A stretch of 64,000 nt of DNA from the NCBI RefSeq assembly GCF_003991155.1, contig NZ_CP031293.1. One strand, written 5' to 3'. Positions 1 to 19,165 of the stretch are shown piece by piece (the first letter of the stretch is position 1; every line of letters begins with the position of its first letter). The position numbers and the translations under genes are program-made. The DNA is from Escherichia coli (GTDB lineage Bacteria; Pseudomonadota; Gammaproteobacteria; Enterobacterales; Enterobacteriaceae). The notes beneath the pieces are model-generated. The model saw only the letters and a list, made by a program, of their open reading frames with translations. It ran no database searches and was not told the DNA's origin.

Positions 1-414
1 TCGTCTTTTGGGATCAATGTCGTGATAAACGAGCGTACGATTTTTGAGCTTGACGCAGTGGCTGAGCTGGCGCAACAGTTTGGTGCTAGTGAATTGCTGT
101 TGTTGCCTCAGCAAGCAACTAATGCAGTCGCAAGTATGGACGAATTGGTCGGCCGAGAGCTTCAAAACTGGGTCTCTAGCTATAGAGGAAAGGTTCGACT
201 TGCAGTAAGTGAGGTGGGAGCGTCAGGGCTCCCCATATGTGACCCTCTTCCTAATGAAACAGGCCTTCAAGCCTACGCGCATATAGACGCTTCCGGGATA
301 TTGCGCACGAGTTCTTATTCAACCACAGGTATGGATATTGAAGAAACTGGTGTTATGTCCGCGCTTAAACGGCTTAGAAATACCTTAGAGATTAAACAAG
401 GGACACAATCATGA
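1..414 (+). CDS. hypothetical protein, 5'-partial (reading frame open to window edge)
   Basis: Frame is open from nt 1 (no upstream in-frame stop); stop overlaps the next start as ATGA at 411-414. Confidence 0.35.
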   Translation, partial: SSFGINVVINERTIFELDAVAELAQQFGASELLLLPQQATNAVASMDELVGRELQNWVSSYRGKVRLAVSEVGASGLPICDPLPNETGLQAYAHIDASGILRTSSYSTTGMDIEETGVMSALKRLRNTLEIKQGTQS

Positions 415-818
415 AAATTTGGAACGGATACGGATCTGAGCATTCGATGAACTTAGTTCTCATCGGAAAATTCAAGCAAGAGCAAGATGCAGTGAAGGTC
501 GAGAAGGATATTAAAACGCTCAGTACTCAGGCTGAGAAAGATGAATGTTACTCGATCCCTTTTGATGAGCCAGAGAATCAACGGTTTTCATATGAAATGC
601 TCTCATTACTATGCAGCCTAAAACTCCACACTTTAGGACCAACCGATCTTGGTCAATTGGTGTCAGATCATCATCTAGATCGCGAAGGCGATAGAATAAC
701 AATAACTACTGATGAGGCAGAGGTATCCGCGTTCGTGAAGCTGTTTGTCGAGGCTGGAGCAAAGGTCGAGATTTTCTCAGCGCATGACTATCCGTCCGAT
801 TCCAGCGATGCCAGTTGA
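411..818 (+). CDS. hypothetical small protein (135 aa), translationally coupled between flanking genes
   Basis: ATG overlaps upstream stop (ATGA); its own stop at 816-818 overlaps the TTG 815 of the large downstream ORF. No family recognised. Confidence 0.4.
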   Translation: MKIWNGYGSEHSMNLVLIGKFKQEQDAVKVEKDIKTLSTQAEKDECYSIPFDEPENQRFSYEMLSLLCSLKLHTLGPTDLGQLVSDHHLDREGDRITITTDEAEVSAFVKLFVEAGAKVEIFSAHDYPSDSSDAS

Positions 819-832
819 CAGAGGATGCATTG

Positions 833-3800
833 ATGCCTGAAGTAAATTGGAAAGTATTCAACGAACTGCCCGGTGCAGCAGATGTGAACTTCGAAAACCT
901 TTGCCGCGCTCTGGTACGCCGACACTATGGTCGTTTCGGTCGCTTTAAGCAACTCGCAAATCAGCCTGGGGTGGAGTTTCACCTCGAGCTGACGGAGCCT
1001 TGTGATCTCGGTGCGCCACCAGGTTGGATTGGTTGGCAATGCAAGTGGTATGAACTGGTGAATGGACAAGATTTGGGAGCCTCCCGCCGCAACAAGATCA
1101 TCGAAGGTATCGAAAAGACGCGTAAGCATGTCCCTGGAGTGACCAATTGGAAGCTTTGGACTCATCACACGTTAACAAAAGGTGATCAAGAGTGGTTTTT
1201 CGCGCTAGAGCAAGACCGCTTCCCAGAATTGAAGTTAGAACTGCTCACAGCTACGGATATCGAAGATCTTTTGGTCGGACCGGGAGCGCTTTTACGAGAA
1301 ACCTACTTTGGTGAACTGGTTCTAACTCCAGAGCTAATTGCTGAGCAGTATAAGCTTGCAGTGGCCCCATTTAAGAACCGCTACCAGCCAGATGTTCATG
1401 TAGCGGTGGGGGCTGAGGAGAATATATTCAGGCATCTGTGCAGCCAAAACGCATGGGAATCTCTGGAAGAACTCTCAAACGCTTTAAAAAAGAATCATAC
1501 GAGCATTGCTTCGGTTACTGAGCAACTCAAAACTGAGCTCAGGGCTGAAGTTGAATTACTCCTGGCCCGGGTTATTGGGTTGACTGAGTTTATTGATGGC
1601 TTACACGCGGCGCTCGGCAAAGGTGACTTTAACTCTGTATATCAAGCGTTGGTTTCAAATCCGCGTCAGCCGGTACGTTATGACAGGCTACTTTCGAAAT
1701 TGCGTGGAGCGCGCTTTGACGGGGCTCCGTTAACCGCTAATTTGGTTGCAGATATCCACGCGGTTTCGTCAGTTCTCCGCAGTCTGGAGCAATCGATTAG
1801 TGCTCGGGCGGTTGCTGTTCTTGCGGCGGCGGGGGAAGGTAAGTCTGAACTTGCAGTCAAGGTAACACAGCCAGAAGGGGCGTTCCTAGGGGGAATCCTC
1901 CTATTAGGCAAGAATCTTCATTCAGGCCAGGGGCTTGATGATCTCGTATCTGCCTTCAAGATTTCTGGGAGACCAGCAGAAAGTTTTGACCGCCTGATTG
2001 AGGCCGTAGATGCGGCAGGCCAGCGTGCAGGTAAACGCATACCTATTGTTATTGACGGTCTGAATGAGGCGGAAGATCCGAGAAATTGGAAGGATGAATT
2101 ATCCCGAGTGGATGAGCTTCTAAAGAATTTTCCTTATGTCTTGTTAGTTGTCACTCTTCGCAATGAATTCGCCCAGATGTGTCTGCCTGAGGGGTTTCCC
2201 CAAGTTGAACATAATGGGTTTCAGGAAGATCCGAAGACAGCATTTGACAAGTATTTTGAGTACTACAAGATCGATGCTACTGATGCGGATCTACCAGTCG
2301 AACTCTTGCAGCACCCCTTAACACTGAGAATTTTTTGCGAAGTAGCAAATTCTCCTCGTCAGCATATTGTCGGAGTGGAAGCATTGCCCCGTTCGCTTGC
2401 AAGCCTGTTCGAAGCTCACTTTAACAAGGTTGCAGCACGAGTCGCTGAGCTTTCACCGACGATGCATCGCATTTATCAAGATGACGTTCAGGATGCACTA
2501 CTAACGATCGCGGGTCTTCTTTGGGATAACAATGCGAGAAGTGTGGATTTTCAGGCTACACGGATGGCAGTTCGGGATATGGGGTGGGACGACAGTATTA
2601 TTCGTGCACTGGAGTCTGAAGGCATTCTCGTTCGGACTATTTCTCCAGAAGGTAGGCAAGGAGTTGCGTTTGCATACGACCTAATGGCCGGACATATGAT
2701 GGCGCGCAACCTGCTTATGAAGCCTGAACTGGTGCAATGGCTACAAAGCGATGAAGGGAACGCAAAATTTAAATCTCATGGACCTGATTCGCATACCTTC
2801 GCTTATGACGTATTACGGGCTCTGGTTGATCTGTATCCGCAACACTCTGGTAGGCGGCAGCTTTGGCAAGACTTGTCGGATGATATACTCGTTATGAACG
2901 CTCTGCTATTGACGACGCAATCGGATCCAAGATATATCGGGCGGGCTACTGTTGAACGATTTGCTCAAGCTATGCAGGAGTCGAAGCGGTTTGCACAACT
3001 TGCCTTCGAGAGACTACGGAGCACTAGGGCTGCGCTGGCACATCCGTTTGATATGAGCTTTTTGCATGATGTGCTAATGGCTATGTCCAACACTCAGCGC
3101 GATCTTTTTTGGTCAGAGTGGATTCGTCAGAAATCTGAACAAGTTAAAGACGACTTAAAATTCTTGTCGACGAGATGGAAATCGGGTCATCTGGATGAGC
3201 GTGAACTTCGAAGAGTTCGCTGGGTAATGTGGACACTGACGACGACATCCAGAGCTTTGCGGGATATGGCTACCAAAGCCCTGTATGAATTTGCCATCAG
3301 GCGGCCAGAAGAGTTTTTCCGGTTAGCGACGGAGACAATTGTAGTTTCAGACCCATATGTCCCCGAGCGAGTGTTCGCCGCAGCCTACGGTGCAGTCCTG
3401 ACCACTTGGTCGGATATCGATGCGGTAGAGTTACATGATGCGTTGCCACGGTTCGCTCGTGAGATTTACCAAACCATGTTTGCACCTGGCGCTACAGCCC
3501 CTACCTGGCATGCATTACATCAGCAGTACTGTTTGGGAATCATTGCCATTGCGAGGATGGTCGATCCAAATTGTTTTTCAGAGGACGAAGCTGTTTATCT
3601 TCTTCCGCCATTTAGCCATCTGCCTAACGTATTTGAAAGCATTCAACCGTACGATCCAGAGATGATTGGGCGAGCGGAGAGCGCAGCGATTCAAATGGAC
3701 TTTGGTAACTATACGATTGGTGGACTTATTCCAGACAGAGCGAACTACGATGACAGTAATCCGGAGTACCAACAGGTGTTGCAGGCCATTGTTTCTCGAA

Positions 3801-4891
3801 TGCTGATGCTTGGTTATGACCCTGAGCAGTTTGAAGCTGTTGATCGGCAAATGTACTCCGGTTCTCGTATGGGAGATGACAAGCACAAAATCGATCGATA
3901 TGGCAAAAAGTACGGCTGGATAGCTTACTTCGAGATGTGGGGGATACGATACGCGCAGGGCCTCCTTTCCGAAGAACGCAGTGCTCGCCCATCAGATGCT
4001 GATATCGATCCAACGTTTCCGCAAAAAGTAGAGAGTATTAGTTTGTCACTCCCAGTCTTATTTAACGATCCGTCTGTGGATGATGGTGACTGGATCGTGG
4101 GAGGCCCGCTACCTGACTACCGTAGCATCCTTGAGATTACGGAGGTTGATGGTCTGACGGGGCCATGGATCCTACTTGACGGTTTTGTTGAGCAAAATGC
4201 TACCTCGGATGACCGACAGATTTTCACTTTCCTGCGAGGAGTATTCGTAGATAGCCAAGAAGTTGACAATCTATGTAGGTTGTTCATTGATCTTGAATAT
4301 CCTGGCAATAGCGCCATCCCTGATGCTCCTGGCTACTATTACACCTATGCGGGTGAGATGCCTTTCCCGACTATTCCGGGGCTGCTAGTCGCTAATGAAC
4401 AAGAGGATGATAGCGATGAAAATTTGGTGTTCGCAGAAAGATGGTCAGGCAATGGCGTTGCGGTAGATATCACAGTGCAGGACTACAACTGGGAGAGCTA
4501 CCATAGCGTGGAGAACCAAAGCAGCGGTGCGAGCCTGCCCTCAAAGCAACTTTGTGAGGCTTTGAATCTCAGATACTGTGCAAACAAATGGGATTTGCAT
4601 GATGCTGCAGGTGTAGCGTCACTTTACCGCAAAATTGACGAAAATGGTTCGGACGTCAGTGGCTCTGTCAGCTATCTACGTCGTGATCTACTTGACCGCT
4701 ATTTGATGCAATCCGGTAAGGTATTGGTATGGCTTATGTGGGGAGAGCGTGGTTTTCATTACCGGTCCAACAAGACACGCAATTTGCACAGGTATTACGT
4801 GAATCACCAACATATTCACAAGCGTATTCATATCCATCAGATAGCTTCGAGTACTAGTAACCCAAATATTGCGGATGGAGTCGCTATATGA
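833..4891 (+). CDS. STAND-class P-loop NTPase, Avs/NLR-like, with N-terminal Mrr-like (PD-(D/E)xK, QxK variant) nuclease-type domain
   Basis: Walker A-like AAAGEGKSELA and Walker B-like IPIVIDGLNEAED (the hhhhDGLNE form typical of NACHT/STAND NTPases); N-terminal NFENLCRALV...GWQCKWY resembles the Mrr catalytic core; long C-terminal region. ORF track starts at TTG 815; first ATG is 833. Confidence 0.55.
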   Translation: MPEVNWKVFNELPGAADVNFENLCRALVRRHYGRFGRFKQLANQPGVEFHLELTEPCDLGAPPGWIGWQCKWYELVNGQDLGASRRNKIIEGIEKTRKHVPGVTNWKLWTHHTLTKGDQEWFFALEQDRFPELKLELLTATDIEDLLVGPGALLRETYFGELVLTPELIAEQYKLAVAPFKNRYQPDVHVAVGAEENIFRHLCSQNAWESLEELSNALKKNHTSIASVTEQLKTELRAEVELLLARVIGLTEFIDGLHAALGKGDFNSVYQALVSNPRQPVRYDRLLSKLRGARFDGAPLTANLVADIHAVSSVLRSLEQSISARAVAVLAAAGEGKSELAVKVTQPEGAFLGGILLLGKNLHSGQGLDDLVSAFKISGRPAESFDRLIEAVDAAGQRAGKRIPIVIDGLNEAEDPRNWKDELSRVDELLKNFPYVLLVVTLRNEFAQMCLPEGFPQVEHNGFQEDPKTAFDKYFEYYKIDATDADLPVELLQHPLTLRIFCEVANSPRQHIVGVEALPRSLASLFEAHFNKVAARVAELSPTMHRIYQDDVQDALLTIAGLLWDNNARSVDFQATRMAVRDMGWDDSIIRALESEGILVRTISPEGRQGVAFAYDLMAGHMMARNLLMKPELVQWLQSDEGNAKFKSHGPDSHTFAYDVLRALVDLYPQHSGRRQLWQDLSDDILVMNALLLTTQSDPRYIGRATVERFAQAMQESKRFAQLAFERLRSTRAALAHPFDMSFLHDVLMAMSNTQRDLFWSEWIRQKSEQVKDDLKFLSTRWKSGHLDERELRRVRWVMWTLTTTSRALRDMATKALYEFAIRRPEEFFRLATETIVVSDPYVPERVFAAAYGAVLTTWSDIDAVELHDALPRFAREIYQTMFAPGATAPTWHALHQQYCLGIIAIARMVDPNCFSEDEAVYLLPPFSHLPNVFESIQPYDPEMIGRAESAAIQMDFGNYTIGGLIPDRANYDDSNPEYQQVLQAIVSRMLMLGYDPEQFEAVDRQMYSGSRMGDDKHKIDRYGKKYGWIAYFEMWGIRYAQGLLSEERSARPSDADIDPTFPQKVESISLSLPVLFNDPSVDDGDWIVGGPLPDYRSILEITEVDGLTGPWILLDGFVEQNATSDDRQIFTFLRGVFVDSQEVDNLCRLFIDLEYPGNSAIPDAPGYYYTYAGEMPFPTIPGLLVANEQEDDSDENLVFAERWSGNGVAVDITVQDYNWESYHSVENQSSGASLPSKQLCEALNLRYCANKWDLHDAAGVASLYRKIDENGSDVSGSVSYLRRDLLDRYLMQSGKVLVWLMWGERGFHYRSNKTRNLHRYYVNHQHIHKRIHIHQIASSTSNPNIADGVAI

Positions 4892-5049
4892 GTTACGACT
4901 TCAGAAATCTTTCATCCGCAAACTTTGAGGATCTTGTGCGGGATCTTATCGAAAAAGAAGAAGGGTTCGCTTCGAAGCATTCTCTGTGGGGGCTGATAAT
5001 GATATTGATGGCCGACACGCACATGCTGGAGGGAATGTCAGTTTATAGG
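4888..5049 (+). pseudogene. 53-codon remnant beginning a Mrr-like nuclease domain, ATGA-coupled to the STAND gene stop
   Basis: ATG 4888 overlaps the STAND stop (4889-4891); MSYDFRNLSSANFEDLVRDLIEKEEGF parallels the N-terminal motif of the upstream STAND protein, then terminates early; followed by about 1.2 kb AT-rich ORF-free DNA. Confidence 0.3.
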
Positions 5050-6264
5050 TAAAACCTTATGAAGGGGCGTCGTTTAGTATACTGATGGCTATTATGAAGT
5101 GTGAGTGGTTGTCTAAAGATAAGCTAGCCCTCACACGCTGTATCAAGCGACCTCTTGTTAGCTTACTCCAGCTAGCAAGAGTAAACTTTCCCCACTCATA
5201 GGGCTATGTTTGAAGTCCGAGTCGGAAATTGGGGGGCAGAAGACATAAAAGGTCTCCTTAAGAAGTCTTCTTGTCTGTACAAAAACTCTTATTTTGACAA
5301 AGAGCATTGTAGTTATTAACAGGCTGATTAATAAATTTAAAAATAAGTCGTCAGGAACACCAGATTAGCTACCCAAATTCTCATGCCGTGGAAGCGGAAG
5401 AAAAATACTCCCCTGAATATCTTCATATCGGATATACATAATAAGCTTGAGGTTGTATATTTGAAGAATTGAGTAGCCAGAGCCTTGTTGACATAAAGCG
5501 ACACGAACAACATGTTACTTAAAATATCACGAGTATATATTCAGACTTGTTTATGTTGCGACATGGATTCTACAGGCAGCTGGCTGAAACAGTGAGTCAG
5601 AAAAATTTACAGGAGCGCCATAGTCATTAATGGATATCCGTAATATGCTGATGCAAAAGGGTAAGGAGTTTGCCGGTAATCTGCGGTGTTAGACGACAAT
5701 TACAAAACGACCTTAGGCGTCAATTACCGCTGAAAAAAGTGACAGATCACTTTCTATAAAATGCTGCCGTATGACCGACAGATTTATTCCGCTTTATAGC
5801 CATGACTGTTCGGTGCTCACTTCGCTGCGCTCCGCCTCAGTCCTGCCTAAAAAGCGTTGCAGGTTAGTTTGTATCGGCCTAATGAAAGGCTGTTTTAGCG
5901 AAGCGTAAATGTGACATCTTATCTGGTCTAATCTCTTTGCGATAATTGACGCAAAAGCATGGGCTGTAATTGTCACGCAATACTGCGGCAAGTCTCATGA
6001 TGATGCCTCTGACAGGGATCTCCGTAGCCATTAACTGGTCGATTGGTAAGCTAAAACAAAAAAATTGAATTTGTCAAGACAGCCATAATGACTACCATTT
6101 TCGTCTCTGCTTTTCCATCCTGAAATTAATGGCTATCATATTCGCAATAGACAACATCATCTTACTTGCACTCAACTATAACTAATGCTGAGTGCAAGAA
6201 ACGGGGATTATATCCCCTATCAAGGACCTGTTGAAATATTAGTCTGGAATTTCGAGGCTGTAAT

Positions 6265-6789
6265 TTAAATTGCTCCATTTGCCTTAGCATCAAGAATGAA
6301 TTTTTCATACTCGCGTTCTGCAACAACAACAGGGACTGTTTTGCGATTATATAATTGCATTAATAACAATGTACGATGCCTTCCATCAGAAACACCAAAT
6401 TCACTGTTAGATGCCTCTGGATATTCAACATACCCTTTTGATATATATTTTTTGATTTTATGCCATCTACGCGGATCAATGCAGAATGCTCCATCTCCTA
6501 ATTTTTTAAGAAAGGCTAGCCCATCGACATATACAATCCTGGTAGGACAATGCCGATAGCGTACAGGAAGGGTAAAGATAATATTTTCAAAAACAGGGAA
6601 AGTAAGACCTGAATCATCTTTAGGTATTGACTCAAAGGAATCAAAAGGATATTTTGTCATGTAATCATTTAGTTTTTCAATATCCATATTGGAAAACCAC
6701 GATACTTCCGGGAGAAATTTTTTATCTCTTTCTCTAATTTCTTTGATCGAATCTCCAAATATATCATCTAACCTCCACCCCTCTTTCAT
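6265..6789 (-). CDS. hypothetical protein with C-terminal ParB/Srx-like DGRHR motif
   Basis: 174 aa; GVSDGRHRTLLLMQL near the C-terminus resembles the DGxHR signature of ParB/sulfiredoxin-fold nuclease domains; AT-rich gene downstream of an Rhs immunity gene. Confidence 0.45.
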   Translation of the reverse strand: MKEGWRLDDIFGDSIKEIRERDKKFLPEVSWFSNMDIEKLNDYMTKYPFDSFESIPKDDSGLTFPVFENIIFTLPVRYRHCPTRIVYVDGLAFLKKLGDGAFCIDPRRWHKIKKYISKGYVEYPEASNSEFGVSDGRHRTLLLMQLYNRKTVPVVVAEREYEKFILDAKANGAI

Positions 6790-6833
6790 TTATGCTCCTA
6801 AAATAATGTGATATTAAAAATTCTGTTAATAAG

Positions 6834-7349
6834 TCAAATTTTATGAATACTAATAAGGGGTTTGCACCACTCAACCGAGAGAATATCTTCCATTTTATAA
6901 AAAACGCCATAATCACTTTGATTATAATGCTCAATTTTATCAGCCATTTGTAATCTAATTTTGTCTTTGTAAATTCTACTTCGGATCAAACTGGCGAAAT
7001 TATATATATCAACCCTCAGATTGATAATATTATTTCTATCTGGGCGTCTTTCATGTAACATATCACGAAAAGAAACAAGTAACGTAATTAATTTTTTAGC
7101 CTCATTATTTTTAATATATCCTTTTTTAAAGATGCATAATATTAATTTTGAAATTAAGCTGATTTTTATTTGTAAATTATAGATAGCATTATCGTTTGTC
7201 AGGCAGGTTATGACTTCAATTACTTCACGTGAGCGAATATAATTGTCCAGTGCTTCCCATTCATCCATTCCTCGATGCATTGAAAGTTCCAATTGCCTTA
7301 AAAAAGCATATAACCCCAATAAGAAGTCGCTATTGCAGTATATTTTCAT
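6834..7349 (-). CDS. putative Rhs immunity protein (cognate to orphan Rhs-CT at 7346-8737)
   Basis: 171 aa, AT-rich, immediately downstream of the Rhs-CT gene with a 4-bp ATGA overlap; family not recognised. Confidence 0.5.
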   Translation of the reverse strand: MKIYCNSDFLLGLYAFLRQLELSMHRGMDEWEALDNYIRSREVIEVITCLTNDNAIYNLQIKISLISKLILCIFKKGYIKNNEAKKLITLLVSFRDMLHERRPDRNNIINLRVDIYNFASLIRSRIYKDKIRLQMADKIEHYNQSDYGVFYKMEDILSVEWCKPLISIHKI

Positions 7350-8737
7350 GAATCACATCCTTTAATAAAACTCATTATTCGTGACCAAAAAGAGTCTTTT
7401 TTGTATATAGGGTTTTTATCGTTTAATGGTAAAGGATCGTCTGTTGGTATAACGGCTGTATTTCTTGGCCCAACATTTGTTTTAGTAAGTGAATCTTTGG
7501 AAGCATCAAACTCTACATAAGAACCATTCTTCCATGCCCCTGTTTCTGCACCTGCCGTTTTAGGATCTCCAAATGGCTCCACCTCAACGTGTACACCAAC
7601 AGGATTGCCTCTGGCAGGGTTGATAGACCCATCCTTGCTAATTCCATCAATACCCTCTGTTGAAGTATGATGTCTAACTCTAACAGTATCGTCACCAGTT
7701 AACCCTAACGGATCAATAATTTTTAGCGGATTAAATACATATCCATACAGGCAATCCCCACCTCTCAGCCCCATCGGATCAGCACACAGATACTGCCCCG
7801 TATCGCAATCATAATACCTGAATCGGTTATAGTACAGGCCTGACTCAACATCCTCGTACTGCCCCGGAAAACGTAACCGGCATGTGGGCGCATCTTCTTT
7901 ACTGATGCCTTCCTCACGCCCCCAGAGCTGCTGCTTGCCTTTCCAGACTATCAGACCCTCTTCGGTCAGCAGTTCTTGTACGCGGCCAGTTGTGTCTGTT
8001 ACCGCATAATGCAGTTGCCCCTTTTCATAACGCGCAAACGGCGTGAAATCTCCCGGCTCGTATATCCAGCGGATGGCGTTTTCATCTTCCGGTTTGCCGT
8101 CAGCGCCAACCGGAATTTCCGCCGTCAACTGGTCGCCGTTCCAGTGAAAATCCATGCCGCGTTTGTCGCGGCTGGTACAGCGCTTGCTGATGCGCCTGCC
8201 GAACGGGTCATACTTATATTCCCAGCGTTCGCCCTCCGGTGTTTCCAGTCCGGTCAACTGGCTGCGTGCATCCCATTTATAACGCCATTCCAGTGGGCGA
8301 TAACCCCCTTTATCCACCAGTTTCTGTACCAGCCTGCCGTTAACATCATATTTCCAGGTGATGTTGTGCGCATTCACCACCCGGACAAATCTCCCGTCTT
8401 CCCCTTTTCCGGTGTCCGGGTTGATGCGATGCGTCGAGTGCCGCCAGCCTTCATGTTCCCGCGATACCACACGACCATGCTGCTGTTGCTGGTGCGTCTC
8501 GCTTTCCAGTACGTTATTCACCCTGATCTGGCGACGGGTAATGTTCAGGTTTTTATCGTAAGTGAACAGCTCCTCGCACAGCGGAAACTGGCTGGAATCA
8601 CCCGTCCAGGTGGCGTGGCTTATCTGGTCGTTTGCCGTGATGGTGTTGAACATGGAGCCGCGCAGCGAGTCGGCGATTGCGGTGAGGTTATACGCTTTGT
8701 CGTAGCTTCGCTGCGTCGGGAGGTTTCCATGCCGCAC
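7346..8737 (-). CDS. orphan Rhs C-terminal fragment: end of YD-repeat core plus variable C-terminal toxin domain
   Basis: YD-repeat-like segments (YKYDPFGRR, WIYEPGDFTP) and the core-terminating motif YYNRFRYYDCDTGQYLCADPMGL...DPLGL, followed by a ~115-aa unrelated C-terminal domain; GC-rich core against AT-rich tip. No full-length Rhs N-terminus upstream. Confidence 0.75.
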   Translation of the reverse strand: MRHGNLPTQRSYDKAYNLTAIADSLRGSMFNTITANDQISHATWTGDSSQFPLCEELFTYDKNLNITRRQIRVNNVLESETHQQQQHGRVVSREHEGWRHSTHRINPDTGKGEDGRFVRVVNAHNITWKYDVNGRLVQKLVDKGGYRPLEWRYKWDARSQLTGLETPEGERWEYKYDPFGRRISKRCTSRDKRGMDFHWNGDQLTAEIPVGADGKPEDENAIRWIYEPGDFTPFARYEKGQLHYAVTDTTGRVQELLTEEGLIVWKGKQQLWGREEGISKEDAPTCRLRFPGQYEDVESGLYYNRFRYYDCDTGQYLCADPMGLRGGDCLYGYVFNPLKIIDPLGLTGDDTVRVRHHTSTEGIDGISKDGSINPARGNPVGVHVEVEPFGDPKTAGAETGAWKNGSYVEFDASKDSLTKTNVGPRNTAVIPTDDPLPLNDKNPIYKKDSFWSRIMSFIKGCDS

Positions 8738-8850
8738 AGGTCGTGCTCAAATGTCAGCGGGGCATGGTCCGCTATTCGCCATGACGTAAGATGCCCCATC
8801 AGGTCGCGGGTGAAGCGTTCTGTGATACCCTCAGCCTGTAATTTTACAGG

Positions 8851-9285
8851 TTAAATGGGGAATTTTTCTTCAATGAGCTTCAAGCCAAGTAATGCCATAT
8901 CATGAATATCTTCATCATGCGATTGAGCCGAAATTTTCAACCCGTTTACCATTCTTTTATCTGGGAAAGACATTGTTAATATAGTACACCAAAGCCTAAC
9001 GCTTTTTATTGTGTTAGGATTTTCGAGTATGTTAACGATATTTATAACAACATCATTAAAATCACACTTATAGAGAAAATCCTCAACAATTTGATATACT
9101 CCAAGACCATCACCCTCACCAAAAGATCGCAAAAATAAAGGTATTGCATCTTTATCGGGATGGGAAAGAAAGTAAATTCGTACCTCATCGTATTTATCTA
9201 TAAGATCCTGAGTAATATCACAATCCGCGGGCATTGGTTGATGTAGTGACAGGAACTCTAATGCTTCTTTTTTATTCATATTCAT
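8851..9285 (-). CDS. putative Rhs immunity protein (cognate to the IS-truncated Rhs-CT at 9282-9763)
   Basis: Small ORF starting immediately after the upstream toxin stop; likely start at the internal Met (MNMNKKEALEF). Confidence 0.45.
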   Translation of the reverse strand: MNMNKKEALEFLSLHQPMPADCDITQDLIDKYDEVRIYFLSHPDKDAIPLFLRSFGEGDGLGVYQIVEDFLYKCDFNDVVINIVNILENPNTIKSVRLWCTILTMSFPDKRMVNGLKISAQSHDEDIHDMALLGLKLIEEKFPI

Positions 9286-9763
9286 ATATTTAATGATTCC
9301 CAAAGTTTTTTATTCTGTCTGGCTAACTCATATAGTTGTTCAGTGATGACCTTTTTATCATAGCCTGCATTTGTTAAGATTTTTCTTAGGTCATCTATAT
9401 CCCTTTTCAAATATTGTTCTTTTGTCAAACCTCGAACAAATGCTCGTCTGAATGTCCAGGTAAGAGCATGTAAATCTTTACGCAGATTTATCGTAATTCC
9501 CTTACATTTTGTTGTGGGGCTTACCGCATCCTGAATGGCATGATGAGGTGTATGAGTTGCATTAAGCCCTGTTTTACCATTCGCATAAATTGAAGAACCA
9601 TATGTACCAACGTATAAATCTTCTCCTGGACCAGCTAACAATCCCAAGGGATCAATCCATACCAGTGGATTTGGAGCGTAATTGTAAAGGTTTACTCCCC
9701 CCGACAGTCCAATCGGATCAGCACACAGATACTGTCCTGTCTCGCAATCATAGTACCGGAACC
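9282..9763 (-). pseudogene. Rhs core tip plus C-terminal toxin domain, 5'-truncated by the IS3-family element
   Basis: Rhs-derived coding begins at RFRYYDCETGQYLCADPIGL...DPLGL exactly at the IS left terminus (9764); the annotated Met and first ~16 codons are read from IS terminal sequence. C-terminal domain of unknown family. Confidence 0.65.
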
Positions 9764-17265: not shown

Positions 17266-17341
17266 TGGCTCCTCTGACTGGACTCGAACCAGTGACATAC
17301 GGATTAACAGTCCGCCGTTCTACCGACTGAACTACAGAGGA
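17266..17341 (-). tRNA. tRNA-Asn (GUU)
   Basis: 76-nt reverse complement of TCCTCTGTAGTTCAGTCGGTAGAACGGCGGACTGTTAATCCG...GGAGCCA; anticodon loop CUGUUAA. Confidence 0.95.
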
Positions 17342-19089: not shown

Positions 19090-19165
19090 TCCTCTGTAGT
19101 TCAGTCGGTAGAACGGCGGACTGTTAATCCGTATGTCACTGGTTCGAGTCCAGTCAGAGGAGCCA
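19090..19165 (+). tRNA. tRNA-Asn (GUU)
   Basis: Sequence identical to the minus-strand copy at 17266-17341, ends in CCA. Confidence 0.95.

Follow-up and report, generated by a model that had tools for sequence, protein, structure and literature searches.

The question raised by the left end of this Escherichia coli sequence, hereafter the window (the whole stretch of 64,000 nucleotides analysed), is whether the closely packed genes around a large STAND NTPase represent a new antiviral system or a copy of a known one. The sequence-only reading had proposed a candidate novel defence system. After comparison of the encoded proteins and of the gene order, we estimate with a probability of roughly 0.93 that the Avap1-Avap2-Avs2 module represents the KpAvs2 operon, a three-gene variant of type 2 antiviral STAND (Avs2), in a copy carried on an E. 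coli chromosome. The KpAvs2 operon of Klebsiella pneumoniae S_15PV was characterised experimentally by Béchon et al. (Nat Commun 2024, PMC11564622), and the module is thus a system known since 2024, not a new one.

On the plus strand, open reading frames were identified at positions 1/22-414, 411-818, 815-4891 and 4888-5052, with the junction sequences ATGA (411-414), TTGA (815-818) and ATGA (4888-4891). These had been described as four frames linked by overlapping stop and start codons, and for the frames themselves and the two ATGA junctions this description stands; it does not hold for the second junction. The start codon of avs2 is most likely ATG at 833 and not the in-frame TTG at 815. 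A Shine-Dalgarno sequence, AGAGGA, is located 7 nt upstream of ATG 833, and the same start was chosen by PGAP. Translation from this ATG yields a protein of 1352 aa, in which residue 71 (codon 1043-1045) is the lysine of the nuclease and residue 337 (codon 1841-1843) that of Walker A; the published mutants of KpAvs2 are K71A, K337A and Δ1066-1352 (PMC11564622). With the start at ATG 833, the second junction is therefore a gap of 14 nt between the end of avap2 and avs2 instead of an overlap. A scan for promoters and terminators gave counts at or below the expectation from shuffled sequences, which says nothing on the transcription units.

The two genes upstream of avs2, which had been regarded as members of unrecognisable families, were both assigned by Pfam profiles, one to radical SAM (PF04055) and the other to DUF6375 (PF19902). 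The window carries the 3' part of avap1 (1-414, plus strand), a radical SAM gene for 305 aa of which the final 137 codons are included and whose start lies some 0.5 kb before position 1, and in the identical E. coli genomes a 305-aa radical SAM protein is annotated at this position. Avap1 matches the Pfam Radical_SAM profile with E 3.9e-15 and contains a total of 6 Cys, without a SPASM domain; its CX3CX2C cluster motif, at residues 48-55, falls outside the window. The gene avap2 (411-818, plus strand), whose start overlaps the avap1 stop within ATGA, encodes a 135-aa DUF6375 protein that matches PF19902, the family by which Avap2 is defined (PMC11564622), with E 9.8e-60 over residues 1-133, and is 96-98.5% identical to the proteins from Klebsiella, Cronobacter and Serratia.

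As a candidate relative of Avap1, the prokaryotic viperins (pVip) were considered. A radical SAM core is common to both, as indicated by matches of Avap1 to PADLOC pVip (5e-20) and NCBIfam viperin (5.6e-16) that are limited to the core, but the score of Avap1 is 58.5 bits against the NCBIfam viperin cut-off of 180, and Avap1 scores equally well against the mycofactocin, MoaA, PqqE and SkfB families. The assignment of Avap1 as a viperin was rejected on these grounds. Neither nucleotide products of the pVip type nor an NTP pocket was found for Avap1 in the Klebsiella study (PMC11564622).

The third gene, avs2 (833-4891, plus strand), encodes the 1352-aa orthologue of KpAvs2. Its identification as an Avs/NLR-like STAND NTPase, already suggested from the letters of the sequence, is borne out by a match to PADLOC Avs2 (PDLC02164, E 7.7e-116, residues 8-969) and by a match to the EcAvs2 structure PDB 9O4E (phmmer E 2e-36, residues 331-964). 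The NCBIfam Avs2 equivalog, aligned over residues 310-943, gives 276 bits, which is below its cut-off (1000). The protein belongs to a divergent branch of Avs2; the KpAvs2 clade has been placed inside Avs2 (PMC11564622). The three motifs pointed out beforehand, GEGKS (Walker A), IDGLNEAED (Walker B) and GWQCKWY, are all present, and the core motifs of the STAND NTPase occupy 1832-2077 on the plus strand, with Walker A at residues 334-338 and Walker B at residues 407-415.

The N-terminal region of Avs2 (approximately residues 1-165; 833-1342, plus strand) had been proposed to be an Mrr-like PD-(D/E)xK nuclease, and this proposal was confirmed at the level of the fold. A phmmer search of PDB sequences with the first 170 residues of Avs2 gave no match even at E 10, and a model built from the single sequence was poor (pLDDT 48); it was replaced by an AlphaFold2 model from a 28-sequence alignment, with a pLDDT of 87. 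The best Foldseek match of this model in PDB was the nuclease domain of 8DGF (EcAvs4), with E 1.1e-5 and TM 0.66, followed by the restriction endonucleases MspJI, EcoT38I and FokI, and the N-terminal profiles of Avs4 also match the Avs2 N-terminus, weakly. Within the domain, E48, Q69 and C70 are invariant, and position 71 is K in this protein and K or R in the homologues.

The C-terminal sensor region (residues 1066-1352; 4028-4888, plus strand) was delimited after the deletion data for KpAvs2 (PMC11564622). It is 92-96% identical to the alleles of Klebsiella, Cronobacter and Citrobacter, and down to 88% identical to other E. coli alleles; the identity of the nuclease domain across alleles is higher, at 98-100%. 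A 188-aa C-terminal fragment of the allele from strain APEC20/16 matches positions 1329-1478 of the Avs2 profile with E 1e-11, and homology of the C-terminal sensor to Avs2 sensors has also been detected by HHpred (PMC11564622).

The features of genes and proteins described for the KpAvs2 operon were found at this locus. The radical SAM gene lies directly upstream of avap2, as judged from the Pfam profile and the RefSeq gene order, the DUF6375 gene is adjacent to avs2, and the 1352 aa of Avs2 combine the Mrr nuclease (K71), the STAND NTPase (K337) and, at the C-terminus, the sensor. The gene order, radical SAM (PF04055) followed by DUF6375 (PF19902) and Avs2, is that of the KpAvs2 operon (PMC11564622). 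The kinship to K. pneumoniae proteins is close: Avs2 falls in the same 90%-identity cluster as 1352-aa K. pneumoniae members, with 95-96% identity as measured on members other than S_15PV, and in comparison with one K. pneumoniae locus, also not that of S_15PV, the protein identity is 96.1% for Avs2, 98.5% for Avap2 and 93.8% for Avap1. The module is identified as the known system because its gene content, gene order, Avs2 length and catalytic residue numbers match those published (PMC11564622).

Several observations speak for a novel defence system, in which a STAND NTPase would act together with accessory genes from two unknown families. The DUF6375 protein has no match in PADLOC, NCBIfam or PHROGs, the STAND protein is barely recognised by Pfam alone (for its first 1142 aa, NACHT at E = 1 only, which is uninformative), and in RefSeq it is mostly named hypothetical protein. 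Against this claim, however, an operon with the same genes in this order, and with an Avs2 of equal length and equal numbering of the catalytic residues, has been described and experimentally tested (PMC11564622), and the proteins of the window are 94-98% identical to those of Klebsiella, so that we consider novelty highly improbable. A match to a characterised system with the same gene content, the outcome under which the sequence-only reading itself was to be given up, is found in the KpAvs2 operon.

The fourth frame, which had been counted as a further coupled gene, turned out to be a pseudogene stub. The 54-aa frame at 4888-5052 is the first frame of a remnant of a 762-aa Mrr-nSTAND3 gene (4888-5265, plus strand; residues 1-127, frameshifted; PADLOC candidate PDC-S73). 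In the DNA alignment to the intact gene, there is a 1-nt deletion near 4966 followed by more indels, and homology is gone after about 5265; of a full-length PDC-S73 protein of about 750 aa with an nSTAND3 NTPase, the window retains no more than these 127 residues. Intact copies of the 762-aa gene are found in Klebsiella and Serratia and, within E. coli, in the strain MLI107, in which the gene matches PDC-S73 (5e-146) and Pfam nSTAND3 (2e-48). No papers on PDC-S73 were found in a literature search, and BLASTP between the N-termini of Avs2 and of the fourth gene product gave no significant match. The fourth frame lies outside the system; it is what decay has left of the 5' end of a neighbouring gene, Mrr-nSTAND3.

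The presence of this remnant raises an alternative, namely that the functional unit is larger, comprising a 388-aa gene, avap1, avap2, avs2 and Mrr-nSTAND3, in which the second STAND, coupled in translation through ATGA, would act with Avs2 as paired sensors, and that the copy in the window has lost part of the function. In K. pneumoniae, Serratia and E. coli MLI107, the 762-aa gene starts within the avs2 stop, with 4 nt (ATGA) in common. Upstream of the operon in Klebsiella lies a 388-aa gene that is conserved but belongs to no known family, and the whole block is found again there in several distinct insertion contexts; the window retains the ATGA junction and the decayed stub. On the other hand, the three-gene operon suffices to defend E. 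coli (PMC11564622), the fourth gene is missing beside the three in Cronobacter and Paramixta, it is dead in 23 identical E. coli genomes in which the other three have stayed intact, and PDC-S73 is listed in PADLOC as a single-gene candidate. A search for a remnant of the 388-aa gene in the lineage of the window found none. We regard such a larger functional unit as unlikely. Hardly more probable is the combined proposal that the three-gene operon is part of a larger co-transcribed two-sensor unit, reduced in the window, and that, separately, the sensor substitutions shift the specificity for phage proteins.

The setting of the three-gene operon is that of a tRNA-associated island beside toxin/immunity cassettes, as had been noted beforehand: a tRNA-Asn gene is located at 17266-17341 in the window, and Rhs toxin/immunity cassettes adjoin the module. 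Among 5426 complete E. coli genomes, the operon is present in 25 (approximately 0.5%), across three different tRNA-linked islands, and its core is also found in other Enterobacterales. This spread is as expected for a mobile defence cassette.

Whether the copy in the window is an active defence system or a silent or decaying relic was considered from the integrity of the genes. Decay is evident in the neighbouring Mrr-nSTAND3 gene, avs2 is split by IS100 in two of the 25 E. coli genomes and broken into 1121 and 188 aa in APEC20/16, and promoter-like sites are no more frequent than by chance. In contrast, all three frames, avap1, avap2 and avs2, are intact at full length, with the CX3CX2C motif of Avap1 and the K71, K337 and Walker B of Avs2 all retained, and 23 complete E. 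coli genomes, from varied hosts and countries, have DNA that is 100% identical at this locus, to the precision displayed. It is improbable, a little more so than the larger unit above, that the operon is such a relic.

For the Klebsiella system, the operon defends E. coli by abortive infection, and a phage large terminase, Ksap1 or Ksap2 is sensed, after which DNA is degraded via the nuclease domain (PMC11564622). With the deletion Δ1066-1352, both defence and the binding of Ksap1 and Ksap2 are lost, and three substitutions in Ksap1 suffice to abolish its recognition (PMC11564622). Defence in that system requires the STAND NTPase (K337), and the nuclease (K71) attacks DNA non-specifically; Avap2 is constitutively bound to Avs2 and is required against SECphi18, and Avap1 is required against some phages, T2 among them, but not against others (PMC11564622). 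Binding of Avap2 to KpAvs2 was confirmed by co-immunoprecipitation, and its site was placed by AlphaFold-Multimer on the helical bundle between nuclease and NTPase (PMC11564622).

From the 94-98% protein identity with the Klebsiella orthologue, we infer that the same mechanism would apply to the E. coli locus. The C-terminal domain of Avs2 would directly bind a phage protein, the large terminase subunit, Ksap1 or Ksap2 depending on the phage, and ligand binding may lead to NTP-dependent oligomerisation, by analogy with other Avs proteins for which this has been shown. Defence would depend on the STAND NTPase (Walker A K337); the Mrr-like nuclease (K71) would then cut DNA non-specifically, and the cell would be arrested before phage release by abortive infection. 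Avap2 is predicted to be constitutively bound to Avs2 and to be required against SECphi18, and Avap1 is predicted to be required against some phages such as T2 and dispensable for others. There are 53 substitutions in Avs2 relative to a Klebsiella allele, of which the sensor segment (1066-1352) accounts for about 11, and together with the sensitivity of Ksap1 recognition to three substitutions this indicates that the phage range of the E. coli allele may differ from that of KpAvs2.

The locus shows that the KpAvs2 operon is also present in E. coli, and otherwise adds little. The chemistry of Avap1 and the role of Avs2-bound Avap2 are questions raised in the 2024 paper (PMC11564622), not by the window, and the sole aspect not reported before is that a second STAND gene, coupled through ATGA, frequently follows the operon on its 3' side; in the window this gene is dead.

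Among the known systems compared, EcAvs4 (8DGF) shares the N-terminal nuclease fold with the Avs2 described herein, but Avs4 senses the portal protein, and its NTPase and sensor are of another Avs type. EcAvs2 (AVAST type 2, cryo-EM structure 9O4E) has in common the STAND NTPase core and the Avs2-type sensor and, like KpAvs2, is activated by the phage large terminase and, according to a 2026 preprint, also by Ksap1. Unlike the protein of the window, EcAvs2 is distant in sequence, with 1484 aa, and acts alone without accessory genes, and it is not activated by Ksap2 (2026 preprint); KpAvs2 alone gives weak defence and requires Avap2, which sets its subclade apart from typical Avs2 (PMC11564622). 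The closest agreement is with the KpAvs2 operon, with which the locus shares all three genes and their order, the avap1/avap2 ATGA overlap, an Avs2 of 1352 aa with nuclease K71 and Walker A K337, and a defence-island setting. The E. coli copy differs from it in the host and in its island at tRNA-Asn/yeeN, and from the Klebsiella block in that the two flanking genes, Mrr-nSTAND3 on the 3' side and the 388-aa gene on the 5' side, are decayed or absent.

The frames named by the sequence-only reading were all located on the plus strand of window 1-5052, together with their junction sequences (ATGA at 411-414, TTGA at 815-818 and ATGA at 4888-4891) and, in the avs2 product, the GEGKS, IDGLNEAED and GWQCKWY motifs. 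By ORF reading, the 3' end of the radical SAM gene avap1 enters at the left window edge and stops at 414, the DUF6375 gene avap2 (135 aa) occupies 411-818, the long ORF of the sensor gene avs2 stops at 4891, and a fourth ORF of 54 aa follows at 4888-5052, all on the plus strand. The start of avs2 is almost certainly ATG 833 and not TTG 815: AGAGGA lies 7 nt 5' of ATG 833, the RefSeq annotation uses this codon, and reading from it gives a product of 1352 aa with the nuclease lysine at residue 71 and the Walker A lysine at residue 337. The second junction is therefore a spacer of 14 nt and not an overlap. Of the proposed chain of four coupled frames, the avap1/avap2 ATGA overlap stands, while the avap2/avs2 overlap and the fourth ORF as a gene do not. 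The avap1, avap2 and avs2 ORFs in the window and their motifs are all intact.

The two upstream genes had been described as of unrecognisable family, but both were assigned: Avap2 matches Pfam PF19902 (DUF6375) over its full length (E 9.8e-60), and Avap1 matches Radical_SAM PF04055 (E 3.9e-15) with CX3CX2C at residues 48-55. Avap1 contains only six cysteines and therefore no SPASM-type auxiliary cluster. Viperin was considered for Avap1 and set aside, as the likeness is limited to the core, mycofactocin, MoaA, PqqE and SkfB proteins match equally well, and all of these fall far under the family cut-offs.

Avs2 matched the PADLOC Avs2 model PDLC02164 over residues 8-969 (E 7.7e-116) as well as five more Avs2 models, and scored 276 bits with NCBIfam Avs2, under the equivalog cut-off of 1000. 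Its sole solved sequence relative is EcAvs2 (PDB 9O4E; E 2e-36, residues 331-964), and its N-terminus gave weak matches to the N-terminal part of Avs4 profiles. For a check of the nuclease, homologues of residues 1-170 were collected, 28 were aligned and an AlphaFold model was built from them. E48, Q69, C70 and D118 are invariant in this alignment, and residue 71 (window 1043-1045; motif QCK) is K or R across the homologues. An arginine in place of the canonical PD-(D/E)xK lysine is unusual. The same residue is the one mutated in the KpAvs2 study. The model (pLDDT 87, pTM 0.82) has as its closest solved structure the EcAvs4 nuclease domain 8DGF (E 1.1e-5, probability 1.00, TM 0.66), followed by MspJI, EcoT38I, FokI and other PD-(D/E)xK folds. 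The proposed layout of Mrr-like nuclease, STAND and long C-terminus is borne out.

An intact 762-aa gene follows avs2 in E. coli MLI107, K. pneumoniae and Serratia, where its start codon and the avs2 stop share an ATGA; it lies at L002:12882-15170 (MLI107) and, in two further compared loci, at L004:10056-12344 and L009:10056-12344. Its product carries Mrr_cat and nSTAND3 domains and matches the PADLOC candidate family PDC-S73 (E 5e-146), of which no mention was found in the literature searched. Window 4888-5265 keeps just residues 1-127 of this protein; a 1-nt deletion near 4966 is followed by further indels, and then the homology ends. The fourth frame is therefore a frameshifted stub and not a gene of the module. 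Cronobacter and Paramixta carry the three-gene core without the 762-aa gene. The best reading of that gene is an optional neighbour outside the system, decayed in the window lineage; the evidence leans against cooperation of this ATGA-coupled gene with the operon in other genomes. Klebsiella and E. coli MLI107 also have a 388-aa gene about 540 nt 5' of avap1 (L002:5784-6950; L004:2958-4124; L015-L021:5294-6460), which PADLOC and NCBIfam do not match and for which no Pfam hit is recorded. In Klebsiella it moves with the operon into several distinct contexts (proA/tRNA-Thr, integrase/TrbL and resolvase neighbourhoods); the window lineage retains no trace of it upstream of avap1.

Of 5426 genomes, 25 carry the first 5.4 kb of the window: it is 100% identical, to displayed precision, in 23 complete E. 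coli chromosomes and 93-94% identical in 2 further E. coli. The matching records annotate a 305-aa "radical SAM protein" whose gene starts about 0.5 kb before the window, directly after yeeN, and ends as the left-edge ORF; RefSeq names avap2 "DUF6375 family protein" and avs2 "NACHT domain-containing" or hypothetical. The island extends to tRNA-Asn (17266-17341). Over 6265-9303 (minus strand) and on to about 17300 it carries cassettes of Rhs toxin and immunity genes, an orphan Rhs fragment, an IS3 element, a HigA antitoxin gene and, adjoining tRNA-Asn, integrase remnants. A gene for an Rhs C-terminal toxin lies at 7346-8737, and the small ORFs downstream of it probably encode immunity proteins. 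A second tRNA-Asn is found at 19090-19165, past yeeO. The remainder of the window consists of standard E. coli core genes (yeeO, cob, pdu, his, wzzB-ugd-gnd). The three-gene core occupies three tRNA-linked islands in E. coli, at tRNA-Asn/yeeN (window), tRNA-Thr/proA (MLI107) and tRNA-Phe/yqgA (APEC20/16), and the copies from these islands are 93-94% identical in DNA, which indicates that they were acquired independently. In 2 of the 25 carriers, EC0585 (L014:3828-5629) and CREC-544, IS100 (istA/istB) interrupts avs2 after about codon 794, and avs2 of APEC20/16 is broken into ORFs of 1121 and 188 aa; these are signs of turnover in other genomes.

The KpAvs2 operon described by Béchon et al. (Nat Commun 2024, PMC11564622) consists of the radical SAM Avap1, the PF19902/DUF6375 Avap2 and KpAvs2, a protein of Mrr nuclease, STAND NTPase and C-terminal sensor; roughly 5% of the Avs2 homologues have Avap2 close by. 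In E. coli the operon confers protection through abortive infection, plasmid DNA is degraded upon infection, and defence is lost with K71A (nuclease), K337A (NTPase) or Δ1066-1352, each singly (PMC11564622). KpAvs2 by itself defends weakly; Avap2 binds it constitutively, as determined by co-immunoprecipitation, and was placed by AlphaFold-Multimer on the helical bundle that lies between nuclease and NTPase, while Avap1 is needed against T2 and dispensable against SECphi18 (PMC11564622). Defence is triggered by Ksap1 (Dhillonvirus), Ksap2 (Bas60) or the large terminase (Bas22) (PMC11564622); a 2026 preprint confirms that many terminases, Ksap1 and Ksap2 activate KpAvs2, and also reports the EcAvs2 structure 9O4E. 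Carried over by orthology, the mechanism of the window copy would be the published one: the Avs2 C-terminal domain would bind a phage protein directly, defence would require the STAND NTPase, the N-terminal nuclease would cut DNA indiscriminately, and the infection would abort, with Avap2 as a probable bound cofactor and Avap1 as a putative phage-dependent accessory. By analogy with other Avs proteins, ligand binding may drive NTP-dependent oligomerisation.

The module had been put forward as a candidate novel defense system, a proposal that fails against its match to the characterised KpAvs2 operon in gene content, order and numbering; it is an already known, KpAvs2-type system. The exact window proteins are present in a public protein collection, their 90%-identity clusters take in members from K. 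pneumoniae, Cronobacter, Citrobacter, Serratia, Pectobacterium and Paramixta, and the gene order and avap1/avap2 ATGA overlap are common to all loci examined. Along Avs2, identity to other cluster members is 98-100% in the nuclease domain (residues 1-160) and about 93-96% in the middle (residues 161-1065); the sensor segment (residues 1066-1352) is 92-96% identical to Klebsiella, Cronobacter and Citrobacter alleles, and identity falls as far as 88% against other E. coli alleles. The Avs2 of one K. pneumoniae locus differs from the window protein at 53 positions (96.1% identity), and its Avap2 and Avap1 share 98.5% and 93.8%; these identities were taken against K. pneumoniae members other than the experimentally used S_15PV allele, to which they suggest similar closeness. 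The window Avs2 has the published KpAvs2 length of 1352 aa, and its two catalytic lysines fall at the published residue numbers, 71 and 337.
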